A stretch of DNA of 32,000 bases from Ignicoccus pacificus DSM 13166 (lineage in GTDB: Archaea; Thermoproteota; Thermoprotei_A; Sulfolobales; Ignicoccaceae), in contig CP006868.1 in assembly GCA_025340205.1 (NCBI GenBank), positions 840,001 through 872,000 of the forward strand, in the 5' to 3' direction. Positions 2,791-15,946 of this stretch are shown here, in pieces. How positions within the stretch are numbered: the stretch's first letter is position 1; each line of letters opens with the position of its first letter. The notes beneath the pieces are model-generated. The model did no database searches and was not told the origin of the DNA. It worked only from the letters and a program-made list of their open reading frames with translations. Made by a program: the position numbers and the translations under genes.

Positions 2791-3594
2791 ATGGCAGAGC
2801 TTGCCAACCTGGTGAGTATGCTAAACAAAAAGAAAGAGAGAGTTAAAGTATTTGAGAGAGCTAAGGAAATAGCGACCGCGCAGAGAGATAAGCTAGAAGT
2901 GATAGCTGACGCCGTTATGCATGGAGCTAGGATAAATGGAAAGGAACTTAGTCTAGCAATGGAAGCGTTAATAATAGATCCGCAATATTTCTATTATAAA
3001 AGCACGATAGTGGTCACACCAATAGGCTTCTACCTAACTAAGGGATACGCTCTCGATGAGATATATGCTCTTCCTGGAACTCTTCTTATAGAGGGAGACG
3101 AACTCTTCCTACATCCAGTAGTTCAAGAGTACCATGAATATCTCTTCGGCTACCTACTGGATACTATGGGACCTGGTGAGACGGCTCTCTTTACGCCATG
3201 TTCGAAAGTGAAGCCCTATAGAGACAGCTTCATGTATAAAAAGGTAGAGGCGATAATTGATAGGTATGGTAATGATACTTGGAGGTTCATAGTGGGCGAA
3301 CCGCTAGCTATAGTGCCTAGGTATTTCGACCTCTACTATCCCGCTGCACATTATGATTATCCACCAGAGAAGGTTACTGAAGATGAGTACGAGATATATG
3401 TGAATTTAGTAAAGAAGGCGATTGAGCTGATAGCAACCAAGTTCGAGAGAATAATCTATACGCTCCCTAAGAAGCACAAGAAGGTGTTTGAGGAAGCCCT
3501 TAGAAGAGCTCAAGTTGAGGCCCTTTATAGTCCCTATAATGTCTATTACTTCCCGAGGTTGCGTGAGGTGCTTGTCAGTACCGCCTCCGTCTAG
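2791..3594 (+). CDS. Conserved hypothetical protein with an ArcS/DUF5591-type PCx3KPYx2S motif
   Basis: The 267-aa ORF contains LFTPCSKVKPYRDSFMY, which matches the PC-x3-KPY-x2-S-x2-(H) signature described for archaeosine synthase ArcS, with the final H replaced by Y. No TGT or PUA domain is recognisable. Confidence 0.5.
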   Translation: MAELANLVSMLNKKKERVKVFERAKEIATAQRDKLEVIADAVMHGARINGKELSLAMEALIIDPQYFYYKSTIVVTPIGFYLTKGYALDEIYALPGTLLIEGDELFLHPVVQEYHEYLFGYLLDTMGPGETALFTPCSKVKPYRDSFMYKKVEAIIDRYGNDTWRFIVGEPLAIVPRYFDLYYPAAHYDYPPEKVTEDEYEIYVNLVKKAIELIATKFERIIYTLPKKHKKVFEEALRRAQVEALYSPYNVYYFPRLREVLVSTASV

Positions 3595-4919: not shown

Positions 4920-5399
4920 ATGAACAAGAGGAAGGAAAAAGGTAAGTCCCACTCGAAGAGACCGGTAAGGAACACCCCTCCAAGGTGGATTCAGCTAAAC
5001 CAAGAGGAGATCAAGGCTCTGATAGTGGAACTAGCTAAGAAGGGCTACGGACCTTCTATGATAGGAATAATACTAAGGGATCAGTTTGCTATACCCCTAG
5101 TGAAACCTGTCGTGGGTAAGAAGCTAGTACAAATAATGGAGGAGCAAGGAATAGCTCCTCCCATACCCGAAGACCTCTTCCATTTAATGAGAAGAGCTGT
5201 AAGGGTAAGAGCACATCTCGCCGAGCATCCCAAGGACAAACACTCCGCTAGAGGACTTAACGACATCGAGTCCAAGATAAGGAGGCTAGTTAAGTATTAC
5301 AAGAGGGTTGGCAAACTCCCACCGGACTGGGAGTACGATCCGGAGAGGGCGAGACTACTTGTCCAACAATACTCCGCACTCTTTGAGTCCGGTGCCTAA
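4920..5399 (+). CDS. rps15: 30S ribosomal protein S15 (uS15, archaeal/eukaryotic S13e type)
   Basis: KGKSHSKRP...PRW...[29 protein letters not shown]...[22 protein letters not shown] is the typical archaeal uS15. Confidence 0.95.
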
Positions 5400-6696
5400 C
5401 CTCACCACTTTTCTCTCTGAAAATCAAACGGCACAGCAAGCCCTAGAAGCAATAAAAACACTCATAAGCGAGATAAGGGATTATGGTTTTGTAAGGATAT
5501 TCACTCTTCCCACCTTTGAAGAACTAATCGCTGCTTCCCAAGTTCAACAAGTTATGGAAAATAACGATATTCAAGCGCTCGTTGATATATATCCTTTCAA
5601 TTATCCTCCAGAGGACTCGCCTACTATAGTGATCGGAACTAGAATAGGTAAGAGGAGAGCACCTACAATAGAAGTCTCTCCAGGCCCTCTCTTAATGGAA
5701 GAGAGAAGGGTTAGCTTTTGGATAAATAATGGTTCGATAAGTTCTATAATAATAAAAGTACTCGAGGAGATGTTTGTAGTAAAGGAAGAGTATAAGATAT
5801 ATTCTCTAATTGCAGCATACGCTGGTGATCGTGGTGATGTTGGTAGCGGTCTTGATGGATTGATAGTTGAAGATCTAGAGATAGCTGGCATAGTCGAGAA
5901 GAGCTTCACGTTCTCGTTATACAAGTGGAAGAGCCTACCCTTAATACATTCCGTCGCCTATACAGCGGTTCCATACTTCCACGGTCTCTTAGCGTCTCCA
6001 GAGAAAGTGTTAAACTTCTTGAAGGCATCAGGAATAGACATTGAGGAAACTGAAAGATTGTTGGATATGATGACGGAAGAGGAGAAGTTAGTTAATACAT
6101 TAAAAGCCTTAACCGAATATCTAAATAATGTAAGTAAAAGGAAGCGAGAAGTGACAGAAATACTATATGAAGGTGTTGAAGTGAAGGAAGACGCTACGAA
6201 GAACTTCGATGTCCCATCGATATTGATGCATGGTTTCAAGCAAGGAAGTTTGATCTTCCTAGGCGTATCTGACATCTCCTTGTATCATGTAGTTAGCTTA
6301 ATTACCTTGGGTAAATATTACTATAAGGCCGAAGACTTGTATTTGAAGACGATAACGTTTGCATCAAGCGAACTTCCAGCGGCACTAGCTGTTCCGAAAA
6401 GCTACACCGTATCCGGAAGGAGGGGTACATTGTTATTCTTGCCCGAAAAACCTCCCTCTCCAACTTTGCTATATCGTATGGTTAGAGACTTTGGGATAGG
6501 TAGAGAGGCTGCCCATGTTGTGGGATTCAACGCTTCATCGAAGACTATGGTTCCAATAGATTCTCTAAAAAGAGCATCCTTAGATGTAATAGGTATAATC
6601 AGGAGAAGTATCAGTAAGGGCTGGAAAATTGACGGTGGATGCTTGGTGAAAGAAGATGAAGATGGGAGAGAGTTCAAGGAATTGTTATCAAGTTAA
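5392..6696 (+). CDS. Putative RecJ/Cdc45-like protein with a degenerate (non-catalytic) DHH domain; function assigned mainly by synteny
   Basis: A long ORF sits between rps15 and pcc1/rps3ae, the position occupied by RecJ/GAN/Cdc45 homologues in many archaea. No DHH or DHHA1 catalytic motifs are visible. The ATG at 5308 would overlap rps15 by 92 nt, so the in-frame GTG at 5392 (or the TTG at 5383) at the rps15 stop is preferred. Confidence 0.4.
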
Positions 6697-6916
6697 GGTT
6701 AAGTTGGAGATAATAACCGATGACGTCAAAACACTATTCGAATCACTCAAACCAGACGACGTAGAAGTAAGGGGGTTGAATTACAAGTCCTATATCGAAG
6801 AAGGTATGCTAATATATGAGTTTGAAAGCGATCAAATCCTTACTCTAAGGAATGCGCTAGATGATGTTCTGGAAAAAGCATCCCTCGTCGAGGAAGTATT
6901 AAAAGGGACGCAATGA
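6656..6916 (+). CDS. pcc1: KEOPS complex subunit Pcc1-like
   Basis: A small (about 70-86 aa) beta-alpha protein, ...VKLEIITDDVKTLFESLKPDD...LIYEFESDQILTLRNALDDVLEKASLVEEVL, fits the Pcc1/CTAG family pattern (A..LRA.LNS.L). The start may be the TTG at 6704, which avoids overlap with the upstream gene. Confidence 0.5.
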   Translation: MKMGESSRNCYQVKVKLEIITDDVKTLFESLKPDDVEVRGLNYKSYIEEGMLIYEFESDQILTLRNALDDVLEKASLVEEVLKGTQ

Positions 6917-6937: not shown

Positions 6938-7576
6938 GTGTCCGCTAGAAGGAGAATAGGCGGTAAGGATCGATGGAGGATAAAGAAGTGGTATAATATA
7001 GTCACCCCCGAGGTCTTCAATAACGTCATCGTAGGTCAGACCCCAGCAGACGAACCTTGGAAGCTGATAGGAAGGGTCCTCGATACCACCCTCTATGATA
7101 TAACCGGTGATTTTACATATGTTCATGTACACGTATATCTACAAGTAATCGATGTTGATGAGAAGAACTTACAAGTGTTTACTAGGTTCAAGGGCCACGA
7201 ACTCGCTAGGGACTACATAAGAAGCTTGACTAGAAGGAAGAGTTCAAAGGTGGAGGGAATATTTGACGTATGGACTAAGGATGGTTATGGACTTAGGTTA
7301 ACCATAGACACCTTTACCGCCTACCGCTGCCAGACCAGCCAGAAGAAAGCCATAAGGAAGATACAGAAGGAAGTGGTAGAGGAGTTGGTACCTCAGATGA
7401 CTCTAAATGAACTTATCAACGCGATGCTATTCGGTGACTTGAGTGAGGAGATATCCAAAAGAGCTAGGAAGATATATCCAATAAGAAGGACAGAGATCTA
7501 TAAGTCAAAGTTGCTCTATGTCCCTGGAAAGGAGGGTCCGGTTAAGGCTGTCGTGGTCCCCCAGCCTCCTGCCTAA
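6938..7576 (+). CDS. rps3ae: 30S ribosomal protein S3Ae (eS1)
   Basis: GTG start. GGKDRWRIKKWYNIVTPEVF...GRVLDTTLYDITGDF...RFKGHELARDYIRSLTRRKSSK is the typical eS1 sequence. Confidence 0.95.
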   Translation: MSARRRIGGKDRWRIKKWYNIVTPEVFNNVIVGQTPADEPWKLIGRVLDTTLYDITGDFTYVHVHVYLQVIDVDEKNLQVFTRFKGHELARDYIRSLTRRKSSKVEGIFDVWTKDGYGLRLTIDTFTAYRCQTSQKKAIRKIQKEVVEELVPQMTLNELINAMLFGDLSEEISKRARKIYPIRRTEIYKSKLLYVPGKEGPVKAVVVPQPPA

Positions 7577-8300
7577 AGGTACAAGTTTCTTTGAATGGGC
7601 ACTTTTCACATAATGGATTCTTACTCCTGCAGATTCTCCTGCCGAAGAGTATTAAGTACATGTGAGCTTCTAGTTCCTTGCCCTTGAAAAGTTCTGATAA
7701 TTTATTGCTCACCTTATCGTAGCTTCCGGAAGCTAAGCCCAGCCGCTTCGCTATCCTAAAGATGTGCGTATCAACGGGAAATGTTGGATGACCGAAGTTT
7801 AGGAGCACTACGTCAGCTGTTTTCTTACCTATACCCTTTATAGTAAGTAAGTAATCCCTATCTCCCTCTAGAATGGCTTTTGTAACCTCTTCCTTACGTT
7901 TACAAGCCTCTAAAATTGCTCTGGCTTTTGACTTGTACAATCCAGCTGGTCTTATGGCTTCTTCAATTTCTTGAAGTTCCAAATTACAGATATTTTCGAC
8001 GCTTCCAGCTCTCTTCAGTAAATTAAACCATGCCTTAAAGGCATTAGCTTCATTAGTATTTTGAGAGAGAATCGTTGCTATAAGTGTTGCAAGAGGATCT
8101 TTTGTTAACTTATGGACGTAGAAGGCGATGAACTCCCGTTCATTGATAGGTCCTAAAACTTCCTTCAAGACATCTAGCGTCTTCTCAATGCCCTTAACAT
8201 GGTCTCTATTATTTGGAACGGGTTTTGCTCCCTTCTTAGTTTGTCTAATGCTGCGAGCATGTCGTTGAGCGTCTTGAAGTTCAGTACCCAAGCAACCCAT
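7542..8300 (-). CDS. nth: Endonuclease III family HhH-GPD DNA glycosylase with a 4Fe-4S cluster loop
   Basis: LIATILSQNT, the HhH motif IKGIGKKTADVVLL, FPVDTHIFRIAKRLG, and the C-terminal C-x6-C-x2-C-x5-C (CRSKNPLCEKCPFKETC). The start is uncertain: ATG 8300 overlaps the upstream membrane ORF by 127 nt, TTG 8168 gives no overlap, and ATG 8375 is unlikely. The 3' end overlaps rps3ae convergently by 35 nt. Confidence 0.85.
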   Translation of the reverse strand: MGCLGTELQDAQRHARSIRQTKKGAKPVPNNRDHVKGIEKTLDVLKEVLGPINEREFIAFYVHKLTKDPLATLIATILSQNTNEANAFKAWFNLLKRAGSVENICNLELQEIEEAIRPAGLYKSKARAILEACKRKEEVTKAILEGDRDYLLTIKGIGKKTADVVLLNFGHPTFPVDTHIFRIAKRLGLASGSYDKVSNKLSELFKGKELEAHMYLILFGRRICRSKNPLCEKCPFKETCTFRQEAGGPRQP

Positions 8301-8644
8301 CCCGACATGATTATAGCTATAGCGGATAATATCAATATTCCGACAATTTTCATCCCTATTCTCCATGCATACCACTTTTTCTCTATAGGTAGCATTTCCT
8401 TTCTTCTCAAGATAATGTAAGTTATGTCTCTTAGTAATCTATAGAAAAGTTTTGCGTCGAAGTAGAGTAGAATGCCTAGAGGTATAGCTATGCCTAGTGC
8501 GAAGAAGTGTATTTGATGCTTTAATACGAAGTTTATTAGTTCTTGTCTGAACTTAATTATCTCGTATGGTAGTCTCTTTATGAACTCTTGAATTTGTTGG
8601 GGAAACGATTGAGCTAGTACCACGTTAATAATGACCAATATCAT
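8174..8644 (-). CDS. Small integral membrane protein (about 3 TM), unknown function
   Basis: Hydrophobic helices (LAMILVIINVVLAQSF, IHFFALGIAIPLGILLYF, MKIVGILILSAIAIIMSGWVAWVL). The ATG at 8644 lies 2 nt after the stop of the upstream 114-aa ORF (TAG-CG-ATG). The longer start at 8761 would overlap that ORF. Confidence 0.5.
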   Translation of the reverse strand: MILVIINVVLAQSFPQQIQEFIKRLPYEIIKFRQELINFVLKHQIHFFALGIAIPLGILLYFDAKLFYRLLRDITYIILRRKEMLPIEKKWYAWRIGMKIVGILILSAIAIIMSGWVAWVLNFKTLNDMLAALDKLRREQNPFQIIETMLRALRRR

Positions 8645-8646
8645 CG

Positions 8647-8991
8647 CTAGTCTTCTCTTATTAGTATGTAGATCCAAGGCTTTCCCCCACTCCGACAGCA
8701 CTTTAAGCCTACTAGTAGCGGGTAACAGAGACCTTTTTCTTTTATTATGTGATAGCTCCACGAGATCAAGGGCAAAAGAGTCAGCGTTATGTTTACCTTA
8801 TGTGTTAATACTAAGTACATTAATGTGAAAGCCCTCACTATCGTGAAATCGAGGGATGAGAAAAGTAGGGGTAGGGTAGGATTGTCAGAGAAAATCAATA
8901 CTAGGGCCACCGAGAGTTCAATGAAATAACAGAAGAGGGCTCCCAGTGGACTAGGAGCAATCATCTCATCAGCACTCGGGTTCTTCGTCAT
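8647..8991 (-). CDS. Small integral membrane protein (2-3 TM), unknown function
   Basis: The ATG overlaps the queC stop (ATGA). The N-terminal two thirds are hydrophobic (LGALFCYFIELSVALVLIF, LPLLFSSLDFTIVRAFTLMYLVL). Confidence 0.45.
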   Translation of the reverse strand: MTKNPSADEMIAPSPLGALFCYFIELSVALVLIFSDNPTLPLLFSSLDFTIVRAFTLMYLVLTHKVNITLTLLPLISWSYHIIKEKGLCYPLLVGLKCCRSGGKPWIYILIRED

Positions 8992-9758
8992 CGCCCCCTC
9001 TTATTCAACCACTCCCTATACCACTCGGGGAGATCTTCGTAACTATCTGTTAGAGGATCCGGAACGCTTGCCTCCATGAAAGCTCTAAGCCTTGTGTAAC
9101 AAGCTGGACACCTACCACAAGGTCTTTCTCCTCCTCTATAACATGTCCAAGTGAGCTCGAGTGGAACGTTGAGCTCTAAAGCAGTCTTAACTATGTCTGA
9201 TTTCCTCCGATGTATGAATGGAGCATAGATCTTTATGTATGCTTCTTTACCTTGTTTCTTAGCGTTGAATACTATAGAGGATCCTTCGTTTATGGCCCTT
9301 TCTACGGCCTCGACGAATTCAGGCCTCGTATCAGGGTAAACCGGCTCGCCGGGCTCGTAGTCCGTTCTGTGAAAGCCCACAGAGATTACACCCTTCGTCT
9401 CATCAAATTCGATCATATGCTTCTCTAAAACTGCGGCTGCCGAGGAGAGAAGCACTAGGTTTCTTTGAGGAACGTACGTGGGAGGGACCAGCCCTGGTAC
9501 TATGCTCTCAGCCTTAGGTAACTCTCCTTTAAGGAGAGCAGATGCATCGGCTATCTTGAATATATTAGAAAGATCCAAAATTATGTGTTCTGCTTTATAG
9601 AACCTAGCTATAGCCTTAGCCGATTCTATTTCTCTTTTATGGCGTTGACCATATATTACGGTTAATGCTATAGCTTTCTTAGGCTTGAACTCATTTAGCG
9701 CCTTCGCAAAGGCAGTAGCCGAATCCATGCCTCCCGAGACGAGACCAACGAGTATCAT
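8988..9758 (-). CDS. queC: 7-cyano-7-deazaguanine (preQ0) synthase QueC
   Basis: The N-terminal PP-loop LVSGGMDS and the C-terminal zinc motif C-x-C-x2-C (CYRGGERPCGRCPACYTR) fit QueC, as does the overall length. Confidence 0.9.
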   Translation of the reverse strand: MILVGLVSGGMDSATAFAKALNEFKPKKAIALTVIYGQRHKREIESAKAIARFYKAEHIILDLSNIFKIADASALLKGELPKAESIVPGLVPPTYVPQRNLVLLSSAAAVLEKHMIEFDETKGVISVGFHRTDYEPGEPVYPDTRPEFVEAVERAINEGSSIVFNAKKQGKEAYIKIYAPFIHRRKSDIVKTALELNVPLELTWTCYRGGERPCGRCPACYTRLRAFMEASVPDPLTDSYEDLPEWYREWLNKRGR

Positions 9759-10877
9759 CTAGATCACCCTATACCAGTTGTCTCGTTCCCTAGGCTCACA
9801 ACCCGCTTGATGAATCCATAGCTTTATCTCATCCTCTCTTGGGAATTTAACTTTAAGACCAGTAGAAGGGATTACTCGTTCATTATAGAGCGTTCCACCC
9901 CAGTCATCTGCTCCAAAGTTGAGTGCTAGTTGGGCAACGTCCTTGCCCACGGTAAGCCATCCAGCTTGAATATGTGGAATGAATCCATCAAATACTATCC
10001 TCGCAGTCGCTATTATTCGAAGGAGTTCGTAGCCTCCCCAAGGATACTTTATTCCGTACTCCTCTGCAAGTCTTGTTTTGTTGGGTTCAAAGTTCCAAGC
10101 AATGAAAGCTAAGCTGCCGGGTGCTCTCCTCTGTAACTCTCTCAAGCGATATAGATGGAGAGCTCTTTCGTAGGTTGTTTCTACGTGGCCGAACATCATA
10201 GTAACTGAAGTCGGGATGCCCATTCTATGAGCAATTTCGATTATGTTAATCCAAGTTTCTACGTCAATTTTACTGGGACTTAGTATCTTTCTAACCCTTT
10301 CGACTAAGAGCTCCGCACCTCCCCCGGGAAGGGAGTCGAGTCCAGCATCACGCAATCGCTCCAAAACCTCTCTATAACTCATATGATGTTTCTTTGATAA
10401 ATAATCGATTTCAATAGGACTCAGAGCATGGATAGCGACGTCGGGTAAGTTGGACTTAATTAAGTGGAAGAGTTCTTCAAAATAATCAATTGTTATCTCT
10501 GGATTAACGCCTCCTTGGATGAGGACTTGTCTTATTTTGTATCTAGACCACACTTCTTTGATCATATTATAAGCATCTCGAGGTGAAAGTAAGTAACCTT
10601 GACCCGGTTCTCTATAGAACGCACAGAACTTACATCTCACCACACAGACGTTCGTATAATTCAGTATCATATTTTTAATGTAGGTACACATTTTTCCGTA
10701 ATGTTTCTCTTTAATTGTCTTGGCTACCTTACCAAGAGCCCATAAGTCATGACTTTTCAACAATCTTTCTATATCCCTTACGCTGAGGAGTTCGCCGGCA
10801 AGATATTTCTCTAGTATATCGTAAATGTCAGTGTCTTTGAACTCAAGAGGTGAGAGAACACTTACCCCTCTGGACAC
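9759..10877 (-). CDS. Radical SAM enzyme of the MqnE/MqnC/CofH (futalosine / FO-synthase) family
   Basis: GTG start. It has the cluster motif NYTNVCVVRCKFCAF (CxxxCxxC). It also has LPGGGAELL, MMFGHVET, LRELQ...FIAWNF and NFGADDWGGTLYNERV, which are characteristic of this subfamily and not of QueE. Its stop TAG is immediately followed by the queC ATG. Confidence 0.8.
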   Translation of the reverse strand: MSRGVSVLSPLEFKDTDIYDILEKYLAGELLSVRDIERLLKSHDLWALGKVAKTIKEKHYGKMCTYIKNMILNYTNVCVVRCKFCAFYREPGQGYLLSPRDAYNMIKEVWSRYKIRQVLIQGGVNPEITIDYFEELFHLIKSNLPDVAIHALSPIEIDYLSKKHHMSYREVLERLRDAGLDSLPGGGAELLVERVRKILSPSKIDVETWINIIEIAHRMGIPTSVTMMFGHVETTYERALHLYRLRELQRRAPGSLAFIAWNFEPNKTRLAEEYGIKYPWGGYELLRIIATARIVFDGFIPHIQAGWLTVGKDVAQLALNFGADDWGGTLYNERVIPSTGLKVKFPREDEIKLWIHQAGCEPRERDNWYRVI

Positions 10878-10893: not shown

Positions 10894-11994
10894 TCAACCT
10901 TTGATCCACTTTATAGTTTCGAGGAGCTTGTCAAGCGTAGATCGGTATATTCCTATTCCATAATCTGCGACACCTCCAAACCAGAATATTTCATCGCCTC
11001 TCTTGACGAGTCCAGAGCCGTATATCACCATTGGTCTGTCGCCATAGAGTTCCTCTATCGTAGAAGGCCAAAGTAAGTACTCGCTAATCCCTAGGAGTTC
11101 ACCTTCTGAATTCACGATGGCTACGCCGTTCCTATATATCAAGTCCTCTCCTATACCGTGCCAGCCGAACAAGTATTCGTTGGCGCTTATCTGCACAGGA
11201 GGTGTCGAAACCCCAACCTTTATTTCAAAGTCCTCGTGGACCATGCTTACATCCATCAGTTCATATGGTACGGTCCACTCGTCCTCGGCATTTATCGTGG
11301 CTCTCCAGATGACCTCATGACCCTCTATGAAAGGTCTGGTAAGAATGCGTAGTTTCTTCCCTTTTCTCCAGAGTGCTATGGTATTCTTCCATGAAGGGAG
11401 CAAAAGCTTGATTGTAGGATCTGTAGAAGAACCTAGGTAAAGTATACCCTTTTTCTTGGTCTCAAGTGTTGACTTATCTAATAATGTAAAACCTTGTTTA
11501 GGCCATAAACCACCATCTCTTAGACCAACTGCAGTATAGAATATCAGAAATTCATCATCAAACAAATGGGCTCTAGGATCCTCTGCACCTCTTTTTATTT
11601 CATGCTGAGTGGTTGGGTATACCACGATTCGACCTTCAAGCTCTAAGTTTGGTAGATCTTCTATGGAGGAAACAGGTAGATCGAAATAAGCTATTGAGGA
11701 AACGTAGTCGTAGTAATCGAATACTAATCTTACAAATAGGTGGAGATGATCGTCCTCTATAACGGCTGAAGGATTGAAAGCAACCAATGGTCTTCTCGGA
11801 TAGTTTGAAATGAATATCTGTTGAGCTGTTAAGTAGCCTACTCGTTCGAAAATTCCTTCTACGAACTTACCCCTTCTTAGTCCTCTTAATTCCTCATACG
11901 CCTTACTCACCTTTCTAGTTAGTTCGTCAACTATTCTTGATCTCAAGGGCATCCTTGCCATGGGTGAGCTAGAGGTAGTAGGGTAATATAACAC
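10894..11994 (-). CDS. GH130/DUF377-like beta-propeller glycosidase or glycoside phosphorylase (COG2152)
   Basis: FNPSAV..., GAEDPRAHLF...FYTAVG, ...IFWFGGVADYGIGIY match the conserved blocks of the GH130/DUF377 family. Alternative ATG starts at 11961 and 11952. Confidence 0.65.
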   Translation of the reverse strand: MLYYPTTSSSPMARMPLRSRIVDELTRKVSKAYEELRGLRRGKFVEGIFERVGYLTAQQIFISNYPRRPLVAFNPSAVIEDDHLHLFVRLVFDYYDYVSSIAYFDLPVSSIEDLPNLELEGRIVVYPTTQHEIKRGAEDPRAHLFDDEFLIFYTAVGLRDGGLWPKQGFTLLDKSTLETKKKGILYLGSSTDPTIKLLLPSWKNTIALWRKGKKLRILTRPFIEGHEVIWRATINAEDEWTVPYELMDVSMVHEDFEIKVGVSTPPVQISANEYLFGWHGIGEDLIYRNGVAIVNSEGELLGISEYLLWPSTIEELYGDRPMVIYGSGLVKRGDEIFWFGGVADYGIGIYRSTLDKLLETIKWIKG

Positions 11995-12020: not shown

Positions 12021-13187
12021 TTACTCTTTGATTATTTTTAGCTCTTTTAGGTACTTGAGCATGTCATAGTATGCCTTGATCCTAGCTTCGTTCTTTGCAT
12101 TCTTAGGACCGGGATTCTTCATGTAGAATGCGTTGACTTCATAGCAAGTACCCTTAACTCCTCTCTCCATTAGTGCCTTAGAGAGTCTTGCTAGGTCCAC
12201 AGCCAGACCGGCTAGGGCAGGAGAATCGTTAATCCTCATGTTCACTATTAACTCATCTACAAGACCGTTGAACGTAATCCACTCTATGTCCATAGCCACG
12301 AACTTTCTGTCACCTATAGCCTCGACGTACCCTGTGGGCCTAATGTAGTGAGGGGCATCGTAACCCAAGATATCTTCCACGATACTGGATTTCGTTTTTT
12401 CCTTCATTAAGTTCCTCTCAGGTATAGTCAACGCTAGGAAGTCTGTGTTTCCGCCTATGTTGAATTGTACTATGAATCGTATTAATCTATTCCTTTCGGC
12501 TAGATGTTCAAGTAGATCAGCGGTTAAGGGAGTTGCACCGGTGGCGCCATCGTCTCCGAGTAGTAAGGAGTTGGTCTCTGCGAACAAGTTTACCATTACT
12601 GGATCGTTAGCTAGAGGGGTAGGTATGAGGTTAATGAATGCAATTTGCTTGCCGGTATCCTTAGATGCTAAGTAGGTAGCGTAGGCATAGGCTTGAGCGG
12701 CGCTAGCCTTTCCTTCTTTTATCCTCTTTAGTAGCTCTTCTTCAGATCTAAAGGGTTCGGCAGGCTCTGTTGAGATTAAGTTAAAGACAACGTCGATGGA
12801 GTCTTTTTTCAATTCATTAGCTATTTCTTCTATGGCTTCCATAGGCTCAATTTCTTGATCTCTTCCGGAAACCGGAAAGAGTTTGTCAAGTCCCGCAGCG
12901 GAACCCATGAGGAGGCCCTTACGTACTTCGGTTTCCGGTAAGCTGGAGGGCAAAGGAATTACGTCCTTTAAGGATTCAGTTACGATATCCCTTACACTTT
13001 TGCCTACCTTCCTAGTGTCGACGTCATAAACGCTTACTATCTCTTCTTCTAAGAAGTCAACCGCTAAGTCGTACTTTGCCAAGGGAACACCGTAAGGTTT
13101 CATGGAACCTTCTTTGAGCCTGTAGAGGCCCACTATGTAGTGTGAGGCCACTAAACCCATTCCGAAAATCGATACCTTAACTACCAT
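12021..13187 (-). CDS. ino1: myo-inositol-1-phosphate synthase
   Basis: An N-terminal Rossmann-like fold (VSIFGMGLVASHY), LLGDDGATGATPL and QFNIGGNTDF are hallmark motifs of archaeal/bacterial MIPS. Confidence 0.9.
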   Translation of the reverse strand: MVVKVSIFGMGLVASHYIVGLYRLKEGSMKPYGVPLAKYDLAVDFLEEEIVSVYDVDTRKVGKSVRDIVTESLKDVIPLPSSLPETEVRKGLLMGSAAGLDKLFPVSGRDQEIEPMEAIEEIANELKKDSIDVVFNLISTEPAEPFRSEEELLKRIKEGKASAAQAYAYATYLASKDTGKQIAFINLIPTPLANDPVMVNLFAETNSLLLGDDGATGATPLTADLLEHLAERNRLIRFIVQFNIGGNTDFLALTIPERNLMKEKTKSSIVEDILGYDAPHYIRPTGYVEAIGDRKFVAMDIEWITFNGLVDELIVNMRINDSPALAGLAVDLARLSKALMERGVKGTCYEVNAFYMKNPGPKNAKNEARIKAYYDMLKYLKELKIIKE

Positions 13188-15496: not shown

Positions 15497-15946
15497 TTAG
15501 GGCATTCTCAAACACTTCATACATAGAGACGGTTTTAGATGCCATATAATCCTTCTCCTAAAAACGTCGAGCGCTACTACGTCTCCTGTACCTAGATCAA
15601 CGGATATACCTAACTCTTCTAGCGTCTCTTCAAGTTGTGGGTTATGAGAAATGTAGAGAGCTCCTGGCCTTATATTGTTGAGTAGGACCTTAGCGCTTAG
15701 TCTACCGGGTCTGAGCCACTCCACCGTTTCGACTTTGATGTTACCTCCCAGACATTTATTCAACAATTCCGCCGTTTCTAAGCTCCTTACCAATGGGGAG
15801 GTATAAATTAGAGCAGGCCTCTCTATACATTTGCAGATCGCTTCAACTTGCTTTTTCCCGTGGTCGCTTAGAGGTCTATCCTCGTCGCGCATTTCAGAGC
15901 TTTTCGGTATCGCCTCTGCGTGTCTCATAAGCATTATCATTACCAA
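15497..15946 (-). CDS. Histidine phosphatase superfamily protein, SixA-like phosphohistidine phosphatase
   Basis: The LMRHAEA (RHG-type catalytic motif), RPLSDHGKKQ, TSPLVRSLETA and SHNP motifs are present, and the size is about 145 aa. Start is TTG 15946 or one of the ATGs at 15940-15928. Confidence 0.7.
   Translation of the reverse strand: MVMIMLMRHAEAIPKSSEMRDEDRPLSDHGKKQVEAICKCIERPALIYTSPLVRSLETAELLNKCLGGNIKVETVEWLRPGRLSAKVLLNNIRPGALYISHNPQLEETLEELGISVDLGTGDVVALDVFRRRIIWHLKPSLCMKCLRMP

Follow-up and report, generated by a model that had tools for sequence, protein, structure and literature searches.

Do genes that are packed end to end work together, or have they only come to lie together? 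This question is raised by five minus-strand genes in a 32,000-nucleotide stretch of the genome of Ignicoccus pacificus DSM 13166 (contig CP006868.1, positions 840,001 to 872,000), which is called the window below. They encode a radical SAM enzyme, QueC, two small membrane proteins and an Nth-type glycosylase. The original prediction offered two readings of this string: menaquinone (futalosine) and archaeosine genes that lie side by side by chance, or a non-canonical 7-deazaguanine neighbourhood whose radical SAM and membrane proteins act in deazapurine metabolism.

The string is probably a side effect of the compaction of Ignicoccus genomes and not a pathway module, with each enzyme serving its own pathway. 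MqnC, as the radical SAM protein is identified below, would make cyclic dehypoxanthinyl futalosine for menaquinone, which would serve an H2/sulfur respiratory chain. QueC would turn 7-carboxy-7-deazaguanine into preQ0 for the archaeosine at tRNA position 15, and Nth would clear DNA of oxidised pyrimidines. Both small membrane proteins are orphans specific to the clade. One or a few polycistronic transcripts probably span the genes, and translation may be coupled where stop and start codons overlap or abut; both would be consequences of compaction. As a functional reading, the 7-deazaguanine neighbourhood is not supported.

The five genes, in the order of transcription, are:

9759 to 10877, minus strand: predicted MqnC orthologue (cyclic dehypoxanthinyl futalosine synthase, a CofH-family radical SAM protein), 372 amino acids, GTG start
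8988 to 9758, minus strand: QueC (7-cyano-7-deazaguanine / preQ0 synthase), 256 amino acids
8647 to 8991, minus strand: orphan Cys-rich small membrane protein, 114 amino acids, its start overlapping the queC stop (ATGA)
8174 to 8644, minus strand: orphan membrane protein, 156 amino acids, with a signal or transmembrane segment and a helical hairpin of two transmembrane segments, then a conserved amphipathic C-terminus
7542 to 8168, minus strand: endonuclease III (Nth-type HhH-GPD glycosylase/lyase, 4Fe-4S), 208 amino acids from TTG 8168; the longest open reading frame (ORF) reaches up to 8375

All five genes and their junctions, as first described, were confirmed in the sequence. The TAG stop of the radical SAM gene directly abuts the queC ATG at 9758, queC and the 114-residue ORF share the stop-start overlap ATGA at 8988-8991, and the junction from the 114-residue to the 156-residue ORF reads TAG-CG-ATG. 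Nth could start at an overlapping ATG (8300) or GTG (8375), or at TTG 8168, 5 nucleotides past the stop of the 156-residue ORF. Because homology to relatives begins at TTG 8168, and because the annotated starts in I. hospitalis and one related metagenome-assembled genome (MAG) likewise come right after the upstream stop, nth is placed at 7542-8168.

Identity of the three enzymes

The radical SAM protein was first assigned broadly to the MqnE/MqnC/CofH family. The family and the sequence blocks on which it rested stand, and bit scores and a tree now sharpen the assignment to the MqnC type, away from MqnE and CofH. The ORF matches the Pfam families Radical_SAM (PF04055) and CofH_C (PF19288), both above their cut-offs. 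It contains the GGGAE, GHVET and GADDWGGT blocks as well as the CX3CX2C motif, which is invariant (C78-x3-C82-x2-C85) in an alignment with archaeal MqnC. In NCBIfam the MqnC model TIGR03699 ranks first at 423.7 bits, and the MqnE and CofH models follow at 304 and 300. In controls, bacterial MqnC proteins score 457-471 bits on the MqnC model, above its cut-off, and proteins encoded next to MqnC-type genes in bacteria exceed the MqnE cut-off with 440-505 bits. The gap of about 120 bits between MqnC and MqnE in the window protein resembles that of bona fide bacterial MqnC.

The closest database proteins are MqnC of I. hospitalis (Igni_0868, 68% identity) and I. islandicus (64%), followed by MqnC of Vulcanisaeta, Pyrobaculum and Conexivisphaera (51-57%). 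Compared with Vulcanisaeta proteins, the window protein is 55% identical to MqnC and 36% to the second CofH-family paralogue. Between the window protein and MqnC of Pyrobaculum, Vulcanisaeta, Conexivisphaera and Nitrososphaeria, 69 alignment columns are invariant. The only solved relative is MqnE 6XI9, and exact-sequence look-ups of the window protein and of Pyrodictium MqnC matched no record.

The phylogeny proposed in the original prediction was computed by neighbour joining from 54 family members of the fetched loci, with 200 bootstraps. The window protein falls within the MqnC clade (174/200) and within its archaeal subclade (199/200). The MqnC clade stands apart from bacterial MqnE (194/200) and from a second archaeal paralogue (160/200). 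The distance to bacterial MqnC is 1.07 for the window protein and 1.09 for the Vulcanisaeta MqnC that lies in an mqn cluster, and there is no long branch. These nearly equal distances therefore give no sign of accelerated change in the window protein. Judged by its sequence, it is an MqnC orthologue and not an MqnE, CofH or QueE analogue.

This identity bears on the second reading of the string. An MqnC-like radical SAM protein could have been recruited to make or salvage deazapurines, for instance as a substitute for QueE, in a non-canonical 7-deazaguanine operon that might even extend to DNA modification via Nth. The abutting MqnC stop and queC start in this genome speak for such a recruitment. 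An unaccelerated MqnC orthologue speaks against it, and so do the model matches: none of the QueE models (TIGR03365, TIGR04322, TIGR03963, TIGR04349, TIGR04508) is among the 18 NCBIfam families that match the protein at E <= 0.01, whereas a genuine crenarchaeal QueE (locus L009) matches 5 of 5.

QueC is a canonical member of its family by sequence. It matches PF06508 at 1.3e-51, with 175.5 bits against a cut-off of 22, and comes 2 bits short of the TIGR00364 cut-off (148.3 against 150.3 bits). It aligns end to end with Bacillus subtilis QueC (3BL5). The PP-loop SGGxDS is present as SGGMDS at residues 8-13, and the C-terminal Cys4 zinc site (C206, C214, C217, C220) is invariant among crenarchaeal QueCs and aligns to 3BL5.

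Nth can likewise be classed as a canonical endonuclease III. It matches PF00730 at 1.6e-20 (73.9 bits), and its best matches in the PDB are endonuclease III of G. stearothermophilus (1ORN) and E. coli (2ABK). The translation shows the catalytic Lys/Asp context (GIGKKTADVV and VDTHI) and carries the 4Fe-4S loop C-x6-C-x2-C-x5-C, CRSKNPLCEKCPFKETC. It scores 126.7 on TIGR01083, whose equivalog cut-off is 211.7, a shortfall that is as expected for a divergent archaeal member.

The original prediction also raised a link between Nth and 7-deazaguanine modification of DNA. The Pfam scan of the window covered ORFs of at least 110 amino acids that are not embedded in larger genes, together with Pcc1 and the two small ORFs, and no scanned ORF has a TGT or DpdA-like domain that would indicate a Dpd-type system. 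With no DpdA/TGT-like gene among these ORFs and all endonuclease III hallmarks in Nth, the link finds no support, and recruitment loses a further argument.

Packing and conservation of the neighbourhood

The window is crenarchaeal in character, with about 44% G+C, and about 96% of it is coding. Across it, spacers between same-strand genes have a median of 16 nucleotides, and they measure 10 nucleotides or less at 12 of the 27 same-strand junctions. The tight packing of the string is the window's baseline and does not rise above background. The description as a "tightly coupled string" was thus correct in that the packing is real, but the packing is not special.

A run of ten co-directional minus-strand genes with unrelated functions extends from 15946 to 7542, and the string occupies its 3' end. 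Upstream of the string this run consists of a histidine phosphatase, a 281-amino-acid ORF, Nop56/58, inositol-1-phosphate synthase and a GH130 phosphorylase. No sense-strand oligo-T run of six or more interrupts the ten genes, and Rfam and tRNA scans of the window gave no matches. Two of the upstream neighbours, both identified by Pfam, belong to the same collinear block as the string:

10894-11994, minus strand: GH130 glycoside phosphorylase
12021-13187, minus strand: myo-inositol-1-phosphate synthase (Ino1)

At the other end of the run, the 3' end of nth overlaps that of the convergent plus-strand gene S3Ae by 35 nucleotides (7542-7576). A similar overlap is found in I. hospitalis and MAGs.

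Conservation was examined in the Ignicoccus clade by comparing the window with I. hospitalis (CP000816), I. islandicus (CP006867) and three MAGs. The order Ino1, GH130, MqnC, QueC, small ORFs, Nth is kept in all of the other clade genomes sampled (5/5). Beyond Nth, wherever the contig reaches, these genomes continue with convergent S3Ae, Pcc1, a 430-amino-acid ORF and S15. In I. islandicus the collinearity extends over about 21 kb (TatC ... S15, Pcc1, S3Ae, then Nth ... QueC, MqnC, GH130, Ino1, Nop56 ...), and it is shorter elsewhere. The unit kept in the clade is collinear over about 10-21 kb, and its genes are unrelated. Since the collinearity is block-wide, what has been conserved is a long stretch of unrelated genes among close relatives.

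Within this block the MqnC-QueC junction varies. The spacer between the two genes is 0, -4, 47 or 52 nucleotides in different clade genomes; therefore the junction itself is unconstrained. The 52-nucleotide spacer, that of I. islandicus, is rich in A and T. Upstream of MqnC, an HD-domain gene is inserted between GH130 and MqnC in I. hospitalis and one MAG.

As a side observation, the part of the window with the ORFs 5308-6696 (+) and 6656-6916 (+) encodes a conserved protein of 430-460 amino acids without a Pfam match (arCOG00432 in I. hospitalis). It lies between S15 and a homologue of the KEOPS subunit Pcc1, and is syntenic throughout the clade genomes.

Outgroups show other arrangements. 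In Pyrolobus fumarii and a related MAG (L008, L092), QueC has a histidine phosphatase alongside and no MqnC or Nth nearby, and another archaeal QueC (L009) adjoins a QueE-type radical SAM gene. MqnC of V. distributa, Vulcanisaeta sp., a Pyrodictiaceae MAG and several Nitrososphaerales lies beside a second CofH-family radical SAM gene and VitK2_biosynth (MqnA/D), with no QueC. A wider sample consists of 80 non-Ignicoccus MqnC loci from a profile scan of species-representative genomes; among the matches listed, QueC lies within 10 kb of MqnC at 1 of the 80. When conservation of the neighbourhood is checked as originally suggested, the adjacency is thus kept within the Ignicoccus clade, but is absent from the nearest outgroups and exists only as part of a long collinear block. 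Recruitment of MqnC to deazapurine metabolism can draw on the first of these results; the lack of an MqnC-QueC adjacency in outgroups counts against it.

Two further features of these loci can be recorded. In Pyrodictiaceae QueC is followed by a His_Phos_1 gene (L008 10001-11372, L092 10001-11390), and in the window a His_Phos_1 gene at 15497-15946 heads the ten-gene run, about 6 kb upstream of queC. The presence of His_Phos_1 in the vicinity of QueC may be a trace of an older arrangement. In archaeal mqn clusters, the second CofH-family radical SAM gene is found at L005 6810-7901, L014 5719-6924, L022 8748-9860 and L037 8706-9902. These second paralogues score about equally on the MqnC, MqnE and CofH models and fall below every cut-off. 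Their clade (160/200 in the tree), which stands apart from bacterial MqnE, is presumably the archaeal counterpart of aminofutalosine synthase, missed by current equivalog models.

The rest of the two pathways

The window holds little of either pathway beyond MqnC and QueC. No MqnA/MqnD-type gene and no second radical SAM gene lies in its 32 kb, and no QueD, QueE or TGT domain occurs among the Pfam-scanned ORFs. The original statement that queD, queE and tgt are missing from the window holds for these ORFs, but it overlooked one gene:

2791-3594, plus strand: stand-alone ArcS-type (DUF5591) gene, 267 amino acids, matching the archaeosine synthase core (ArcS model NF040592, positions 296-411) at 1e-12, with PDB match 2Q07 (AF0587)

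The window is therefore not devoid of other archaeosine-related genes. The DUF5591 protein has neither a TGT-like nor a PUA domain. The ArcS motif is present in it as PCSKVKPYRDSFMY, that is, PC-x3-KPY-x2-S-x2, a Tyr variant; in the published ArcS motif, His stands at the position of this Tyr. The gene occupies a syntenic place in I. islandicus and one MAG, and is not found in I. hospitalis. Its product may form archaeosine in this clade, or may be a remnant.

In I. hospitalis the remaining genes of both pathways can be found at other loci. One of them is Iho_0229, whose family, arCOG02173/COG0602, we take to be QueE-type. It is annotated as an "organic radical activating enzyme" of 218 amino acids and is distinct from NrdG, Iho_0458 (PMC3149612). 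Further preQ0 and archaeosine genes outside the string are Iho_0779 (6-pyruvoyl-tetrahydropterin synthase), Iho_0632 (GTP cyclohydrolase I), Iho_0478 (ArcTGT) and Iho_0817 (arCOG00996) (PMC3149612 Table S1). Menaquinone genes outside the string are Iho_1086 (a second arCOG00656 radical SAM), Iho_0875 and Iho_0687 (MqnA/D-type) and Iho_0457 (UbiA-type prenyltransferase) (PMC3149612). The string itself reads Iho_0864 (endonuclease III-related), Iho_0865 and Iho_0866 (hypothetical membrane proteins), Iho_0867 (QueC) and Iho_0868 (radical SAM, arCOG00656) (PMC3149612 Table S1). In the proteome of this species MqnC was detected with 75/54 spectra and QueC with 24/9, and the three downstream proteins were undetected (PMC3149612).

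These genes leave little for a recruited enzyme to do. With separate genes for QueD, GTP cyclohydrolase I, ArcTGT (PMC3149612) and a presumed QueE-type radical SAM protein in I. hospitalis, a substitute is unneeded, and the other mqn-type genes make MqnC necessary there for menaquinone. In the I. hospitalis genome, disruption is reported for about 180 gene clusters that are conserved in archaea, and operons are fragmented (PMC2614490), which fits mqn and que genes landing beside unrelated neighbours. By the same pattern, the remaining steps of both pathways in I. pacificus would be encoded outside the window.

Of the two readings offered at the outset, chance juxtaposition is thus supported by the identity of MqnC, by the outgroup contexts and by the pathway genes elsewhere in I. 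hospitalis. A role of the radical SAM protein in deazapurine metabolism is unsupported. Two findings had been named that together would speak against a functional link: canonical queD/queE/tgt-type and other mqn-type genes are indeed present elsewhere in I. hospitalis, but the adjacency is conserved in relatives, though only in the Ignicoccus clade and within the long collinear block. A literature search for MqnC together with QueC found no relevant paper, and a paper on Ignicoccus and Nanoarchaeum tRNA does not mention archaeosine.

The orphan membrane proteins and known systems

Several points weigh against compaction as the explanation for the string. The MqnC score of 423.7 bits lies 4.4 bits under the equivalog cut-off of TIGR03699 (428.1). 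The presence of queD, queE, tgt and other mqn genes in this genome is extrapolated from I. hospitalis. When the crenarchaeal QueE (L009) was used as a query, neither this genome nor any Ignicoccus appeared among the best 120 matches, which are mostly environmental and reach down to 154 bits, a result that is uninformative and not negative. The MqnC-then-QueC order recurs once, in the unrelated Pirellulaceae bacterium L057 (MAG OZ247499.1, 9031-11815), where VitK2_biosynth, MqnC and QueC lie on one strand and the queC start follows the MqnC stop after only 6 bases. The order is absent from the other Pirellulales loci that were sampled, and the adjacency is probably a coincidence. Finally, the ATGA overlap between queC and the 114-residue gene is kept in all six clade genomes (the window, L002, L003, L007, L090, L091), which hints that this pair is more than accidentally linked.

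The absence of an I. pacificus QueE from the best 120 matches and the independent adjacency in L057 could be cited in favour of recruitment of MqnC to deazapurine metabolism. Taken with the evidence above, this reading is nevertheless extremely unlikely and can be considered largely refuted.

The overlap between queC and the 114-residue gene deserves a closer look. No other junction in the string appears constrained; for this reason a QueC-associated small membrane protein is kept as a modest rival to compaction. QueC and the 114-residue protein, possibly with the 156-residue protein, would form a small clade-specific functional unit, and MqnC and Nth would be mere neighbours. Such a unit might anchor QueC at the membrane, or serve in preQ0 handling or export.

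Both small ORFs are real genes, as they are conserved in order and sequence in 6/6 clade genomes, with clear motifs and hydrophobic segments. The 114-residue protein is 32-48% identical across the six genomes, with an N-terminal motif M[TK][KR]NPS..PSP.GA and a Cys-rich C-terminal motif G.C[YW]P..CC..G. The 156-residue protein is 42-67% identical. These conserved motifs and the kept order agree with a functional unit. So does the queC overlap, which is preceded in all six genomes by a GAGGGGG-like ribosome-binding motif, whereas the MqnC-QueC junction is not kept.

The six genomes are closely related, however, and the conserved overlap may therefore be simple inheritance. Overlapping starts are also common throughout the window. 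In the proteomic data for I. hospitalis both small proteins went undetected (PMC3149612). Neither has a Pfam or NCBIfam family at E <= 0.01, and neither matches the Pfam/NCBIfam models of known transporters of preQ0 or queuosine precursors (YhhQ/Vut_1, QueT). An exhaustive HMMER search among 1.84 billion proteins found 3 cluster representatives of the 156-residue protein, and nothing outside them. Its AlphaFold model is an all-helical hairpin (mean predicted local distance difference test score, pLDDT, 75.7), and a fold search of the PDB with this model gave nothing significant, only generic helical hairpins with a best E of 0.39. On balance, a functional unit of QueC and the 114-residue protein is improbable. 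Of the two membrane proteins originally suggested to act in deazapurine metabolism, only the first, the 114-residue one, is a weakly possible candidate.

One possible role for an export function would be to supply symbionts. QueC would be translationally coupled to the 114-residue protein and then to the second orphan, and the pair would handle or export preQ0, for example to symbionts of the Nanoarchaeota type. The I. hospitalis symbiont Nanoarchaeum equitans, whose ArcTGT is split and which also has a gene of the ArcS type, might need external preQ0. Symbionts of this type, which carry ArcTGT/ArcS-type genes, presumably do not synthesise preQ0. This version is very unlikely. If a deazapurine role of the 114-residue protein proved true, it would bear on how host-dependent Nanoarchaeota obtain precursors for tRNA modification.

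A fusion of QueC with the 114-residue protein was also considered as an explanation for the longer QueCs of Pyrodictiaceae, and rejected. These owe their additional length to insertions within the protein and to a soluble C..GD..AC tail at the C-terminus.

Compaction remains the favoured explanation for the string. The locus carries little weight for pathway discovery: each of its three enzymes is an ordinary representative of a known family, and the I. hospitalis orthologues are already annotated as MqnC and QueC. It does call for caution. In streamlined, rearranged archaeal genomes, tight packing, even with abutting stop and start codons, does not imply shared function.

Bacterial and phage 7-deazaguanine clusters combine queCDE with tgt or dpdA, as in Dpd systems. 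The string shares with them only the presence of queC. Among the ORFs scanned, string and window have no queD, queE, folE or tgt/dpdA, and the radical SAM partner is MqnC instead of QueE. The window queC adjoins neither queD nor queE, and an overlapping orphan membrane gene comes next. The window MqnC lies outside any mqn cluster, unlike its counterparts in Thermoproteales, Pyrodictiaceae and Nitrososphaerales.

Nth has the HhH-GPD fold signature, the catalytic Lys/Asp context and the 4Fe-4S loop of endonuclease III (2ABK, 1ORN), and differs in scoring below the TIGR01083 equivalog cut-off. QueC shares the PP-loop, the zinc site and a full-length alignment with the B. subtilis enzyme (3BL5; PF06508/TIGR00364), and differs from it by crenarchaeal insertions and a C-terminal DPLT..YE.LP.WY..WL tail. 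The radical SAM protein has the Radical_SAM and CofH_C architecture and the CX3CX2C motif of MqnC (TIGR03699; Igni_0868, V. distributa MqnC), belongs to the MqnC clade, and scores well above MqnE and CofH on the MqnC model.

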